A DNA stretch of 64,000 nucleotides from Escherichia coli (GTDB taxonomy: Bacteria > Pseudomonadota > Gammaproteobacteria > Enterobacterales > Enterobacteriaceae), in the NCBI RefSeq assembly GCF_003018115.1, contig NZ_CP027457.1; one strand, written 5' to 3'. The stretch's first letter is position 1; every line of letters begins with the position of its first letter. The notes below the pieces were generated by a model. The model was not told the DNA's origin. It did no database searches and saw nothing but the letters and a program-made list of their open reading frames with translations. Below, one piece after another: positions 14,221-54,702 of the stretch. The position numbers were made by a program, and so were the translations under genes.

Positions 14221-14766
14221 GTGGACGATTTGACCGCACAAGCCCTGAAAGATTTTACTGCACGCTACTGCGATGCGTGGCATGAAGAGCATAAAAGCTG
14301 GCCGTTAAGTGAGGAACTGTACGGCGTTCCTTCACCGTGCATTATTTCAACTACTGAAGATGCCGTATACTGGCAACCCCAGCCGTTTACCGGGGAACAA
14401 AATGTAAACGCGGTTGAACGCGCTTTTGATGTTGTGATACAACCCACAATTCATACCTTTTATACGACTCAGTTTGCCGGGGATATGCACGCGCAGTTTG
14501 GCGATATCAAACTGACATTGCTGCAAACCTGGAGTGAAGACGACTTCCGTCGGGTGCAGGAAAATCTGATTGGTCATCTGGTGACTCAGAAAAGGCTAAA
14601 ACTGCCACCCACGCTATTTATCGCGACGCTGGAAGAAGAGTTAGAGGTCATCTCGGTGTGTAATCTCTCCGGTGAAGTGTGCAAAGAGACGCTGGGAACA
14701 CGTAAACGGACGCATTTAGCCTCAAATCTTGCGGAATTCCTTAATCAACTTAAGCCTCTTCTGTAA
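14221..14766 (+). CDS. syd: SecY-interacting protein Syd
   Basis: 181-aa [27 protein letters not shown]... Confidence 0.9.
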
Positions 14767-14985
14767 TCCAAATACCCCATCTGGTTGTGAGAGATCTCTT
14801 ACAGACTCTGTAGGAGATCGCCAGGAAATAAGCGAATACTTAAAAAGATAAGAATCGTTATTTTCATTTAAAATCAAAATGTTGATTGTTAATTCTTAAC
14901 TTTCATATGAAATTTTCCTTAAGGCATTGTCTGTAAGCGCCTTGTAAGACTTCGCGAAAAAGACGATTCTATCTTCGTCGACAGG

Positions 14986-15343
14986 GAGTCAGACAACGAA
15001 GTGAACATCAGGATGATGACACTTCTGCAGGACACACCAGGATGGTGTTTCAGGGAAAGGCTTCTGGATGAAGCGAAGAGGATGACGCAGGACGCGTTAA
15101 AGGACACCTCCAGGATGGAGAATGAGAACCGGTCAGGATGATTCGGTGGGTCAGGAAGGCCAGGGACACTTCAGGATGAAGTATCACATCGGGGTGGTGT
15201 GAGCAGGAAGCAATAGTTCAGGATGAACGATTGGCCGCAAGGCCAGAGGAAAAGTTGTCAAGGATGAGCAGGGAGCAACAAAAGTAGCTGGAATGCTGCG
15301 AAACGAACCGGGAGCGCTGTGAATACAGTGCTCCCTTTTTTTA
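14986..15343 (+). ncRNA. csrB: CsrB small RNA (CsrA-sequestering)
   Basis: ORF-free segment with about 18 CAGGA(T/A)G / AGGA motifs spaced 10-25 nt apart, ending in hairpin GGAGCGCTGTGAATACAGTGCTCCC plus T8 (15311-15343); lies between syd and yqcC. Confidence 0.9.
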
Positions 15344-15387
15344 TTCCTGCTATCCTTCGCGGCAGTTTTTCTTATTGAGGTTGCTTT

Positions 15388-15717
15388 ATGACCACTCATG
15401 ACCGCGTTCGTCTCCAGTTGCAGACGCTTGAAGCGTTACTGCGTGAACATCAGCACTGGCGAAACGATGAACCCCAGCCGCATCAATTTAATAGTACCCA
15501 ACCGTTCTTTATGGACACCATGGAACCACTGGAGTGGTTGCAGTGGGTGCTGATCCCGCGAATGCACGATTTGTTAAATAACAACCAGCCGTTACCGGGC
15601 GCTTTTGCCGTTGCTCCCTATTATGAAATGGCGCTGGCGACGGACCATCCGCAACGCGCGCTTATTCTGGCTGAGTTGGAAAAACTGGATGCTCTTTTTG
15701 CGGATGATGCGAGCTAA
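15388..15717 (+). CDS. yqcC: DUF446-family protein
   Basis: 109-aa ORF; synteny csrB-yqcC-truC. Confidence 0.8.
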   Translation: MTTHDRVRLQLQTLEALLREHQHWRNDEPQPHQFNSTQPFFMDTMEPLEWLQWVLIPRMHDLLNNNQPLPGAFAVAPYYEMALATDHPQRALILAELEKLDALFADDAS

Positions 15718-16966: not shown

Positions 16967-17019
16967 TATGTTCAGCGAGCGGTAAATGTCGTTTTAGCGG
17001 TGCTGAATCGAATCTTTTC

Positions 17020-17074
17020 AGGCAAATGCCAGTAAAAACTGCTTCATAGCGCGGATTTTTACTGGCGTTTGCCT
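17020..17074. other. long inverted repeat (19-bp stem AGGCAAATGCCAGTAAAAA / TTTTTACTGGCGTTTGCCT, 17-nt loop)
   Basis: Read directly; 54 bp downstream of yqcA stop; no adjacent T-run on either strand. Confidence 0.6.
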
Positions 17075-17400
17075 GGAGTCAAGCGATCCATTTCATACTC
17101 TTCTTTATTTCTTCGTTTTAACCCTTCCTTTCTTGTTCTTGTTTTCATTTCCGTGAAGTGGATTCCACCGTCCAGGGCTAATGCCAAAATCGGGCCTCAT
17201 TGAACGCATTAATGTTGTGTTGTTGCACGGTGAGCCGCTATGGCGCGCTTTTTATACTGCTATTGCCAGATATAAACACGCGCCGTATTCGGCGAACGAC
17301 CTATAAAAACGGCAAAAAACACCCTACGTCACCTCTGATTTCCTGGCGATGTCGCAGTCCAGAGTGAGCGTGGCTAACGCGAATTTTCAGGAGTGCAACA

Positions 17401-21688: not shown

Positions 21689-24445
21689 TTACCCGAGAAT
21701 TTTGCTGGCTTCGCGCGCGACATTATCCATCTCGTCCAACAGTTCCAGCAGCTCCGGCTCCAAATCTTCTTCTTTAGTACCGCTACGTAGCTGTTGTTCG
21801 ATCAGTTGGCAGAGATTCTTCATACGCGGCACACCGCTATAGCCGCAACTGCCATGCAGTTTATGAATCAAATCAACCAGGCCTTCCGGGTTTTCTCCAA
21901 CCAGCTGTTCCTCAACTTTGTTGCGAACTTCAGGCAGGAAATCGAGTAACATTTGCAGCATATCGCGCGCTAAATCGGTTTTTCCTGCTGCCTGGCGTAG
22001 TGCCAGTTGCCAGTCGAGGGTCGCATTCGGGTTCACCACAATTTCGTTGACTTCGGGCGTCACGACGCGAGAGGAAATACCGCTGCCAGGCTTGTAGCGC
22101 AACAGCAAATTATGCAATCGCTCTTCTTCAATCGGTTTCGCCAGATAATCGCTCATCCCTGCGCCAAGCAGCTTCTCTTTTTGCCCGGCCATTGCATGCG
22201 CCGTTACCGCGATAACCGGCGTTTGTTGCTGATGGGGGAGCTGGTGGATGAGCTCGCAGGCCCGAATGCCATCCATGTCAGGCATTTGAATATCCATTAA
22301 GATCAAATCGAACGGCATCTGTTTCGCCCGTTCAACCGCCTGATGCCCGCTATCGCAAAGTTCCACATGTTGCACCATATCTTCCAGCAATGCGCCGATA
22401 AGTTTCAGGTTAGCGGGGTTGTCATCAACTGCCATGACTGTCATTGCCAGCTTGCTTTCATCGGTTACAGGCAAAAGCGTGTTTTGTTTGTGATGACAAA
22501 ATTCCGTCAGGGCAGGCAACAGGCGCGTAGGTGTTAATGGTTTCAGCAGACACGCGCCGATACCATCTTGCTTGAGTTTTTCTGCATTGACTTGTGCATG
22601 GCAAGGAAGTGCCAGCATCAGGAAATCGGTCATCGATACCGCTTTCGCTAATCGCTCATGTTGCATTGTTAGCGGCTCGCGGAAGGTCACCGCGATGCCT
22701 AACAACATCATGTCGTAATGCGCGGGAGGCAGCGCGGAGAACGTTGGGCTATAAACCACTTCCAGCGGCGTTTCACTTAAAATATCCAGCGTGCATTGCG
22801 CTGCTGCGGAGTTTGGTTCGACATAGGCCAGGCGCTTACCGGCGAGGCACTGGGTGGATGGCCCTTCGATAATAATGTTCGGGTTCAGATCGAGATTAAT
22901 GTGGAACCAGAAAGTTGAACCGCGATTCGGCTGGCTATGGAACGAAATATCGCCGCCCATTTCATTAACCAGTTTTTGTGTAATCACCAGCCCCAGACCG
23001 GTGCCACCATGACGGCGGGAAATACTGGCATCAGCCTGTCGGAAGGCCTGGAATAAGCGCGATTGATCGCGTTCAGGAATACCAATGCCGGTATCCCGAA
23101 TCTGCACTTCAATCTGCACTTTGGTATTACTCAGCGCACGTTTTTCTACCAGAATATCAATGTTGCCATTCTCGGTGAATTTAATTGCATTCCCCACCAG
23201 GTTAGTGATGATTTGCTGTAATCGCAGTGGGTCGCCGATCACGTTATCAGGCACGTCGCTTTTAATATTGAGCGTCAGTTCCAACCCTTTATCGTGAGAA
23301 GAATGTGCCAGCAGAGTAACGACTTCATCCAGCGTGCTGCGTAGTGGGAATGGAATACTTTCCAGAATCAGCTTACCTGCTTCCAGTTTCGAGAAGTCGA
23401 GAACATCATTAATAATTGCCAGCAAATTATTTGCCGAACGTTCAATCGTATTCAGGTGATCGCGCTGCGTTGGTGTTAATTCTGTTTTCAGCGTCAGGCG
23501 GGTAAAGCCAATAACACCATTCAGTGGTGTACGCAGCTCGTGTGACATATTTGCCAGAAACTCGGATTTAATACGCGCCGCTTCCTGGGCGCGCTTTTTC
23601 GCCAGATCTAACTCAACGTTCTGAATTTCCATCTGCTCCAGCGTTTCACGCAGATCGGACGTCGCCTGGTCGATATTGTGCTGCATCTCTTCGTGATAAG
23701 CAGCCAGCGACATTGCCATCGAGTTGATACCGTTTTTCAGCATATCCAGCTCGCCGAGCATAAATCCTTCCACCCGGCTGTCGAGTTGCCCGCGACGGAT
23801 GCGGTCGACGGTATTCACCATGTTGCGAATCGGACCGGTTACATCGCGCATTAAGCGCCAGCCAAAAATAAGCGCAATACCGATACAAAACAGCATCATC
23901 ACGCTGGAAATAAAGATCTCTTTATATTGCTGCAAGCGAACCGATTTAAGATCCAGCTCAAGCGCAATATATCCCAACATATTTTGACTATTTTTGGCAT
24001 CGCTACTGGGCGATTCGTCGGGGGAGTAACTCTCAGAAATAATCGGCGTGCGGAGGATCATAATATCGCCGTCACGAGTGACAGTGAGCTGGCGAGGAAA
24101 CGGCACGTTGCTGCCGAGCTGCATTGATGAGGGATCAAGATGAAAATTGGAGGTGACAAAGAGTCGGTTATTTTCATCATAAACCGAAATCGCGCGAACA
24201 ATATCGGAATGGCGACGATGCAGTACGCTTATTAACTGACCGATAGATTCGCGATTTTGCAGGCTCATGCCATATTCAGTAGAAACTGCAAGCGGCTCAA
24301 TAATGCTGGCACCGGCATCTTCCAGTTGACGCTGCAAGTCGTTATAGCGATGCACGACGAAAAAGATACTCAGCAATAAACCAATAAGGACGGTCGGTGC
24401 CAGGATCAGAATCATCATGCGTGCGCGCAGGCTGTAGTTGGTCAT
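21689..24445 (-). CDS. barA: hybrid sensor histidine kinase BarA
   Basis: 918-aa ORF with HAMP, HisKA (SHELRTP), HATPase, receiver and HPt regions. Confidence 0.92.
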
Positions 24446-34458: not shown

Positions 34459-35219
34459 GAGTTCCCCGCGCCAGCGGGGATAAACCGAAAATTGGGACGC
34501 TAACTCATGGGTCTGGGTAGAGTTCCCCGCGCCAGCGGGGATAAACCGGGAAAAACGCCTGTGGTTGGGGCTGAACCAGGGAGTTCCCCGCGCCAGCGGG
34601 GATAAACCGTCGGCGCGCTCTCTGTAGAGCGGTTGTGTGATGAGTTCCCCGCGCCAGCGGGGATAAACCGTCGTCGGGTCCGACAGGGGTCGGTTGTTCG
34701 CCGAGTTCCCCGCGCCAGCGGGGATAAACCGGCTTAATAAACGAGGAGAATACCGATGTTTTTAAGTTCCCCGCGCCAGCGGGGATAAACCGTTCTTTTA
34801 ATGGCGTCAGGCCCATTACAGAGCGAGTTCCCCGCGCCAGCGGGGATAAACCGTTTTGACGATTATTCTAAAAGTGAAAATAGCAGAGTTCCCCGCGCCA
34901 GCGGGGATAAACCGCACGCTGGAGTGACCGGGTGGCAGAGCATGACGAGTTCCCCGCGCCAGCGGGGATAAACCGCCATTTCATCATGAACGGCGGAAAT
35001 ATCGTGGGAGTTCCCCGCGCCAGCGGGGATAAACCGGTCAGTTCCCGGTTGATATATATGATGAGCATGAGTTCCCCGCGCCAGCGGGGATAAACCGCGC
35101 AATGGCGCGGCGATTGCTCTCGAGATCAAGTGTTCCCCGCGCCAGCGGGGATAAACCGGGTACAAAAGAGGCCCCATTCTGGCAGGGCTCGAGTTCCCCG
35201 CGCCAGTGGGGATAAACCA
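34459..35219 (+). CRISPR. type I-E CRISPR array, 13 repeats and 12 spacers of 32 nt, repeat GAGTTCCCCGCGCCAGCGGGGATAAACCG
   Basis: Repeats start at 34459, 34520, 34581, 34642, 34703, 34764, 34825, 34886, 34947, 35008, 35069, 35130, 35191 (61-bp period); variants AAG.. at 34764 and GTG.. at 35130; last repeat degenerate (..CCAGTGGGGATAAACCA). Confidence 0.97.
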
Positions 35220-51651: not shown

Positions 51652-51915
51652 ATATTGCCGGATAAATTAAACGCCTCTGTCAGAAATGATGGGGGCGTTT
51701 TTATTTTGCGAGCAGCATTCCTGATTTTAAACGTGAACGCCGCTGGAAGAATTATCAGGTATAGAATGGCGTCGGGTGCTTGAGGCTGTCTGGCGTTAAG
51801 CATTCGCGAGGTTCCAGATGGACAAAAGCCCCAGGCGATATTTCTATCAACCTGAGGCTTACGTTCGAACCCAAACAATTCGAATGTTAGTCTCTTCTTT
51901 GCAGGGAGGCAAGAC

Positions 51916-52068
51916 ATGCTGACAAAATATGCCCTTGTGGCAATCATCGTACTGTGTTGTACAGTACTGGGATTCACGCTGATGGTAGGTGACTCGTTGT
52001 GTGAGTTGAGTATCAGAGAACGTGGTATGGAGTTTAAGGCAGTTCTCGCTTACGAATCGAAGAAGTAG
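51916..52068 (+). CDS. Hok/Gef-family type I toxin (50 aa)
   Basis: [50 protein letters not shown]: one TM helix plus conserved SLCEL...AYES signature; RBS GGGAGG at 51904-51909; a 34-codon upstream ORF (51818-51922) ends overlapping the start codon. Confidence 0.75.
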
Positions 52069-52261: not shown

Positions 52262-54358
52262 ATGCGTAAATATCCTTTAAGTTTACTGAAGGATAAAAAT
52301 ATTGTGACTTTTTTTGATTTCTGGGGAAAAACCCGACGCGGCGAGAAAGACGGGGGCGACGACTATCACCTTCTTTGCTGGCATTCGCTGGATGTAGCCG
52401 CGATGGGCTATTTAATGGTTAAAAGAAATTGCTTCGGGCTGGCTGATTATTTTCGTCAATTAGGGATTTCTGACAAGGAACAGGCGGCTCAATTTTTCGC
52501 CTGGTTGCTGTGCTGGCACGATATTGGAAAATTTGCCCGCTCTTTTCAACAACTTTACCTGCCCCCTGAACTCAAGATTCAGGAAAGTGCCAGAAAAAAT
52601 TACGAAAAAATCTCTCATTCAACGCTGGGCTACTGGTTGTGGAATCATTATTTAAGTGAATGTCAGGAGTTACTTCCTTCATCTTCGCTCTCTCCGCGCA
52701 AACTTAGGCGAGTGATAGAAATGTGGATGCCCGTGACGACAGGGCATCATGGTCGGCCCCCTGATCGTATGGATGAATTGGATAATTTTCTGCCTGAAGA
52801 CAAAGCTGCAGCACGAGATTTTCTCCTTGAAATCAAACCACTGTTTCCGCTCATAGAGATCCCCGCATTCTGGGATGATGATGAGGGCATTGAACTTATA
52901 AAACACCTTTCCTGGTATATCTCTGCAACCGTCGTGCTCGCAGACTGGACGGGTTCGTCAACGCGATTTTTTCCACGCGTCGCACACCCAATGGATATTA
53001 AAGGTTACTGGCAGAAAACTTTAATTCAGGCTCAAAACGCCTTAACCGTCTTTCCTCTAAAAGCAAAAGTCGCGCCTTTCAACGGAATTAATACGCTGTT
53101 TCCTTTTATTGAGAATCCGACACCGTTACAGCAAAAGGTGCTGGATCTGGATATCAGCCAGCAAGGACCGCAGTTATTTATTCTGGAAGATGTGACTGGC
53201 GCAGGTAAAACAGAAGCGGCGCTTATCCTGGCGCACAGGTTGATAGCTGCGGGGAAAGCTCAGGGGCTGTTTTTTGGTCTGCCAACAATGGCAACGGCCA
53301 ATGCCATGTACGATCGGCTGGTCAAAACCTGGCTTGCTTTCTATTCGCCAGAATCCCGCCCCAGCCTGGTGCTGGCACATAGTGCCCGCACATTAATGGA
53401 CCGCTTTAATGAATCACTCTGGTCTGGTGATTTAGTCGGGTCAGAAGAACCGGATGAACAAACGTTCAGTCAGGGATGTGCGGCCTGGTTTGCCGACAGT
53501 AACAAGAAGGCGTTGCTGGCTGAAATTGGCGTCGGCACGCTGGATCAGGCGATAATGGCGGTGATGCCGTTCAAACATAATAATCTGCGGCTTCTGGGGC
53601 TGAGTAACAAAATCCTGCTGGCTGATGAGATCCACGCCTGTGACGCTTACATGTCGTGCATTCTTGAAGGGTTGATCGAGCGGCAGGCGCGTGGCGGAAA
53701 CAGCGTTATTTTGCTTTCTGCCACGTTATCTCAACAGCAGCGCGACAAACTCGTCGCTGCCTTTGCGCGGGGTACAGAGGGCCAGCAAGAAGCTCCGTTC
53801 CTGGAAAAGGATGATTACCCCTGGCTGACGCATGTCACGAAATCCGATGTGAACTCACACCGGGTAGCGACGCGCAAAGACGTTGAGCGTAGCGTCAGCG
53901 TGGGTTGGCTTCATAGTGAACAAGAGTGTATTGCGCGTATCGAATCGGCGGTAAGTCAGGGGAAATGCATCGCCTGGATCCGGAATTCTGTCGATGACGC
54001 TATTAAGGTTCATCGTCAGCTGCTTGCCCGCGGCGTCATTCCTGCTTCCAGCCTTTCACTTTTTCATAGCCGCTTTGCTTTTAGCGATCGCCAGCGAATT
54101 GAAACGGAAACGCTGGCACGCTTTGGTAAATATTGTAGTTTACAGAGAGCGTCGCAAGTCATTGTTTGTACACAAGTAATTGAGCAAAGCGTGGATATTG
54201 ACCTGGACGAAATGATCTCCGACCTGGCCCCTGTTGATTTGCTGATTCAGCGAGCAGGACGATTACAGCGGCATATCCGCGATATTAATGGTCAGTTAAA
54301 GCGTGACGTGTTCCCCGCGCCAGCGGGGATAAACCGGGTACACGGATATTCTGTCTAA
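52262..54358 (+). pseudogene. cas3: cas3 (type I-E), truncated at its 3' end: about 682 codons of Cas3 fused in frame to a CRISPR repeat at 54307/54308
   Basis: HD motifs (HSLDVAAM, WHDIGKF), Walker A (TGAGKTEAA), DEIH box (LADEIHACD), motif VI (QRAGRLQRH); the final 17 ORF codons (VFPAPAGINRVHGYSV) translate repeat and spacer. Confidence 0.85.
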
Positions 54359-54702
54359 AAGTTAACTAGTGTTCCCCGCGCCAGCGGGGATAAACCGACT
54401 GATAACGCCGGAGCCTTCTTTTTCAGCAAGTGTTCCCCGCGCCAGCGGGGATAAACCGAGGTTGACGTTGATTTTGTTCGTTATGTTGCCGTGTTCCCCG
54501 CGCCAGCGGGGATAAACCGACCTCGACAATGACACGGGCGCGAAAACAATCGTGTTCCCCGCGCCAGCGGGGATAAACCGTCGGTGGCTGGATTGAAAAA
54601 GAAGATAATCTGGTGTTCCCCGCGTCAGCGGGGATAAACCGGGCGCACTGGATGCGATGATGGATATCACTTAGAATTCCCCGCCCCTGCGGTAGAACTC
54701 CC
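54308..54702 (+). CRISPR. type I-E CRISPR array, 7 repeats and 6 spacers, repeat GTGTTCCCCGCGCCAGCGGGGATAAACCG; no leader
   Basis: Repeats start at 54308, 54369, 54430, 54491, 54552, 54613 (GCGTCAG variant) and 54674 (degenerate terminal repeat); spacers 32 nt. Confidence 0.96.

Follow-up and report, generated by a model that had tools for sequence, protein, structure and literature searches.

The interval between syd and yqcC in a 64,000-nt stretch of Escherichia coli DNA (the whole of this stretch is called the window here) is occupied in the ORF list by very short reading frames only, which raises the question of what kind of gene, if any, it harbours. A preliminary description made from the raw sequence had pointed to a stretch of this gap that is rich in GGA, poor in ORFs and equipped with a strong terminator, and had attributed it to the small RNA CsrB, at positions 14986-15343. 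The stretch is indeed found at this place, and it is virtually certain that nucleotides 14977-15345 of the plus strand constitute csrB, a 369-nt non-coding RNA gene of E. coli. CsrB has counted as a textbook example of a protein-sponge RNA from the late 1990s onwards, and the copy in the window is the already known gene, identical to that of K-12, with no new biology attached to it. The practical value of the case lies in annotation, as an ORF-based track places spurious antisense ORFs in the csrB gap.

The preliminary description had named an Rfam covariance-model search as a means of checking its reading. This search, carried out with Rfam 15, gathering thresholds and competition within clan CL00106, matched the CsrB model RF00018 to positions 14986-15345 of the plus strand with 380.4 bits (gathering score 71, E 1.2e-110). 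The alignment is not truncated and covers model positions 1-356 of 356. Its start nevertheless misses the first nine nucleotides of the gene, GUCGACAGG, which bear GGA site 1. We placed the 5' end at 14977 because the sequence shows 100 % identity to the experimentally characterised csrB gene of K-12 MG1655 (b4408, “small regulatory RNA CsrB”), whose coordinates, 2924156-2924524 on the complementary strand, correspond to 14977-15345 of the window. The interval first proposed was thus near-exact, falling short by 9 nt at its 5' boundary and by 2 nt at its 3' boundary, and evidently the bare sequence is enough for a first-stage reader to spot a gene for a non-coding RNA and to give its coordinates with little error.

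The gene lies between syd and yqcC and shares its strand with the latter, as it does in the gene order of K-12 and E2865; the wider order ppnN, queF, syd, csrB, yqcC, truC, yqcA, gudP, gudX, gudD, barA is likewise that of the annotated records of these two strains. No NCBIfam model matched the 109-aa ORF at 15388-15717, which owes its designation as yqcC to its position and to collinear alignment with annotated records. The barA gene had been placed about 6 kb away, and this proved accurate, the distance to the csrB 3' end being 6.3 kb. Similarly, the suggestion that csrB would be invisible to ORF-based annotation is supported by the PGAP-annotated RefSeq records of E. coli that were listed or inspected, none of which carries a feature under csrB, while the curated K-12 record annotates it as an ncRNA. 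The features discussed here are collected in Table 1.

Table 1. Features in and around the syd-yqcC gap, with window positions
Feature	Position	Strand	Basis
syd	14221-14766		NCBIfam NF003439, 285.5 bits
UvrY-binding inverted repeat TGTGAGAGATCTCTTACA, 18 bp	14786-14803		Exact match to the sequence in PMC4682653; also found as a palindrome
Additional half-site TGTAGGAGA, 5 bp downstream of the UvrY repeat	14809-14817		Read from the sequence; described in PMC4682653
IHF consensus WATCAANNNNTTR	14872-14887 (-105 to -90)	both (14872-14884 +, 14875-14887 -)	Consensus match
62-aa ORF	14919-15107	-	ORF list
Putative weak sigma-70 promoter (-35 TTGTAA 14942-14947, 17-nt spacer, -10 GATTCT 14965-14970)	14942-14970	+	Sequence and K-12 5' end
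csrB, 369-nt non-coding RNA, 22 GGA	14977-15345	+	RF00018 match and identity to K-12 b4408
46-aa ORF	15001-15141	+ (sense)	ORF list
71-aa ORF	15184-15399	-	ORF list
Segment just 5' of the terminator with the published RNase E sites A327 and A331	15303-15307	+	Numbering of PMC5027483
csrB intrinsic terminator	15310-15345	+	Terminator scan; last hairpin of the Rfam consensus structure
yqcC, 109-aa ORF	15388-15717	as csrB	Position and collinear alignment with annotated records
barA, 918-aa ORF	21689-24445	-	NCBIfam NF008318 (BarA equivalog), 1623.9 bits (cutoff 890); K-12 synteny

The hallmark of the region is its abundance of GGA trinucleotides. On the plus strand there are 21 in the Rfam span (14986-15345) and 22 in the full gene, as compared with 2 on the antisense strand of the Rfam span, a window average of 5.2 per 360 nt of plus strand and a maximum of 13 per 360 nt elsewhere in the window, both strands considered. 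Composition-matched shuffles of the csrB region contain 12.0 +/- 2.7 GGA. The excess is therefore real and strand-specific, even though the purine-rich composition accounts for part of it (about 12 of the 22). The repeats had been described as about 18 copies of CAGGA(T/A)G, a figure that roughly fits the number of GGA motifs or of degenerate matches; the strict heptamer occurs only eight times, always on the plus strand (15009 to 15225), and the GGA sites within one and within two mismatches of it number 12 and 15, respectively. The published numbering of the sites from 1 to 22 fits when +1 is set at 14977, with site 19 at nt 286-288 and site 22 in the terminator; the published map has them at about nt 282-288 and in the terminator (PMC5027483). 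Successive GGA motifs are mostly 10-21 nt apart, which falls inside the 10-63 nt that a single CsrA dimer is able to span between two sites (PMC7652899).

Counting the GGA motifs that lie in hairpin loops had been put forward as a second check. Folding with a pairing span of at most 30 nt, the setting used for CsrB in PMC5027483, yields 16 short hairpins, the loops of which hold 18 % of the nucleotides but 12 of the 22 GGA motifs in their entirety (16/22 are wholly unpaired). Shuffled sequences folded in the same way have 2.4 +/- 1.4 GGA in loops, with a maximum of 8. The Rfam consensus structure places 11 in loops. The unrestricted fold is more stable than those of shuffled sequences (z-score -4.0), and only 8 GGA remain in hairpin loops in this global MFE structure because long-range pairs swallow some of the hairpins. 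Taken together, the number of GGA motifs, their placement in loops and their spacing fit the established mechanism of CsrA sequestration.

At the 3' end, the terminator consists of an 11-bp stem with 7 G-C pairs and a 4-nt loop (15310-15335), followed by TTTTTTT, and GGA site 22 is located in the 5' arm of the stem. RNase E cleaves CsrB in vitro at A327 and A331, in a region termed the “necessary cleavage site” (PMC5027483). With +1 at 14977 both of these nucleotides are indeed adenines (A15303 and A15307), and the segment is unpaired in both folds. A terminator-like hairpin, GACGAAGATAGAATCGTC with TTTTTCGCGA after it, is also present on the minus strand at 14962-14979, where it overlaps the -10 region and the start site of csrB. 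With its 5-bp stem, its 8-nt loop and no upstream gene on that strand, it was judged a probable chance match.

Could the locus make anything besides CsrB? It is hardly likely that it carries an extra product, whether a translated 46-aa sense ORF or a functional antisense transcript, or that repeat-mediated length variants of CsrB, such as the FDAARGOS_1292 allele with its 65-nt deletion, tune CsrA titration between strains. Neither idea is supported for the window, where csrB is the standard allele. A more radical reading, according to which at least one of the 62-aa and 71-aa antisense ORFs and the 46-aa sense ORF is translated into a small protein and the GGA richness is a by-product, is extremely unlikely. 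The reading frames are mechanically present, but none of the three has an NCBIfam hit with an E-value of 0.01 or lower, the 71-aa ORF extends on the antisense strand across the csrB terminator and into the start of yqcC, and the curated K-12 annotation contains no CDS in the csrB region. Moreover, the full-length covariance match and the placement of GGA in loops explain the plus strand as an RNA. The 62-codon ORF had been dismissed as antisense and spurious from the outset, rightly so; the 71-codon ORF is antisense as well, although it had not been marked as such.

The RNA reading, and CsrB in particular, extends to the upstream sequence. The UvrY-binding palindrome of E. coli csrB, 18 bp long, has been published as centred at -183/-182 (PMC4682653). 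The window holds a single copy of TGTGAGAGATCTCTTACA, where 0.01 would be expected by chance, and its centre is at -183/-182 from G14977. The link between BarA-UvrY and this gene is backed by this repeat, an exact copy of the published one whose distance from the start also agrees with the literature. The additional half-site TGTAGGAGA and the right arm of the repeat together make up a further palindrome. Between the UvrY site and the csrB promoter lies a match to the IHF consensus, which we infer to be the putative IHF site reported between the two UvrY crosslinking regions of csrB (PMC4682653). A consensus scan of 14700-15450 detected no strong sigma-70 promoter, in keeping with a promoter that would depend on an activator. 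Transcription probably starts at G14977 from a weak sigma-70 promoter, the hexamers of which are deduced from the sequence together with the K-12 start site.

GGA hairpins and a UvrY-dependent promoter are common to CsrB and its paralogue CsrC, so that the sponge in the window might in principle be CsrC, or some further RNA of the CsrB/RsmB clan. More generally, CsrC of E. coli and RsmY/RsmZ of Pseudomonas work by the same principle, titrating proteins of the CsrA/RsmA family through multiple GGA motifs in hairpin loops, and like csrB they require a two-component system for transcription (BarA-UvrY or GacS-GacA). However, they are other genes with other loci and sequences, and clan competition over 14986-15345 retained only the full-length, 380-bit CsrB match, CsrC not being the best model. 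The location between syd and yqcC, where K-12 has an identical sequence annotated as csrB, also argues against CsrC, as does the upstream palindrome, which is the csrB version TGTGAGAGATCTCTTACA and not the csrC version TGTGAGACATTGCCGATA (PMC4682653). The csrC repeat is less symmetric than that of csrB, and no IHF site is apparent in the csrC upstream region (PMC4682653). The probability that the gene is anything but CsrB within this clan is accordingly negligible.

Comparison with K-12 MG1655 places the csrB assignment on a broader footing. The whole gap (14767-15387) is identical at 621/621 positions. Besides the sequence of the gene itself (369/369), the two strains have in common the syd-csrB-yqcC synteny, the 22 GGA sites, the terminator, the UvrY palindrome at -183/-182 and a nearby barA. 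There is no difference in the gene, but the host genome of the window is not K-12, the flanking 15 kb differing at 203 positions (1.35 %). At this rate one would expect 8.4 differences for the 621-nt gap, which has none (Poisson P about 2e-4), a result that fits strong constraint on both the RNA and its regulatory region. Cattle and human isolates such as E2865 have the identical gap sequence as well, and the 621-nt gap and csrB, used as separate queries, each matched 5425/5426 complete E. coli genomes at >=95 % identity. That the window contains a decayed or inactive copy of csrB has a vanishingly small probability: natural variants with internal deletions do exist, FDAARGOS_1292 with its 65 missing nucleotides being an example, but the gene here matches the functional K-12 gene at 369/369 positions, and there is no difference in the promoter region, the UvrY site or the terminator either.

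Several observations made in the course of these comparisons concern other strains or neighbouring sequence. Among the 5426 complete E. coli genomes, one has no csrB match, a few have matches in two places, and one of these places is on a plasmid. The natural allele of E. coli FDAARGOS_1292 (NZ_CP070124.1, 3001-3346) lacks the nucleotides corresponding to 15209-15273 of the window and with them GGA sites 17-19, and it differs at 6 further positions over 346 aligned nucleotides. The deletion sits between two direct repeats that are nearly identical, GAGCAGGAAGCAA (15201-15213) and GAGCAGGGAGCAA (15267-15279), and looks like the outcome of repeat-mediated slippage inside the GGA-hairpin array. 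Finally, the yqcA-gudP gap of the window (16967-17400, 434 nt) shows zero differences from K-12 while the genes flanking it differ by 1.7-2.2 %; presumably, a conserved region with a regulatory role precedes the gud operon here.

For K-12 it is established that CsrB is produced, that it binds multiple CsrA dimers and that it counteracts CsrA in vivo (PMC5027483, PMC7652899), and the identity of the sequences suggests that the same would apply to the gene in the window. The sensor BarA, encoded 6.3 kb away, would phosphorylate UvrY, the activator of csrB transcription, and phosphorylated UvrY would act from the palindrome at -183/-182, with IHF probably bending the intervening DNA. Transcription would then proceed from the weak promoter at G14977 to the intrinsic terminator at 15310-15345. 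By offering many high-affinity GGA sites, CsrB sequesters CsrA dimers from their mRNA targets (PMC7652899, PMC5027483). In the present RNA, about 22 GGA motifs, most of which sit in short hairpin loops or single-stranded linkers, may serve as such high-affinity decoys, and the binding of many CsrA dimers at once would keep CsrA off its mRNAs. Decay is predicted to begin with an RNase E cut in the unpaired AAACGAA just 5' of the terminator; CsrA bound to the adjacent GGA sites 20 and 21 would block this cut, and CsrD would lift the block.

Elsewhere in the window, Rfam recognises the sok antitoxin RNA (RF01794) at 51774-51931 of the plus strand with 113 bits (gathering score 59); the locus resembles a toxin-antitoxin system of the hok/sok type on the chromosome. 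The plus strand further holds two CRISPR arrays that have the 29-nt repeat GAGTTCCCCGCGCCAGCGGGGATAAACCG and a period of 61 nt, one with 13 repeats (34459-35219) and one with 6 (54308-54641), the latter displaying a GTG... variant of the repeat.
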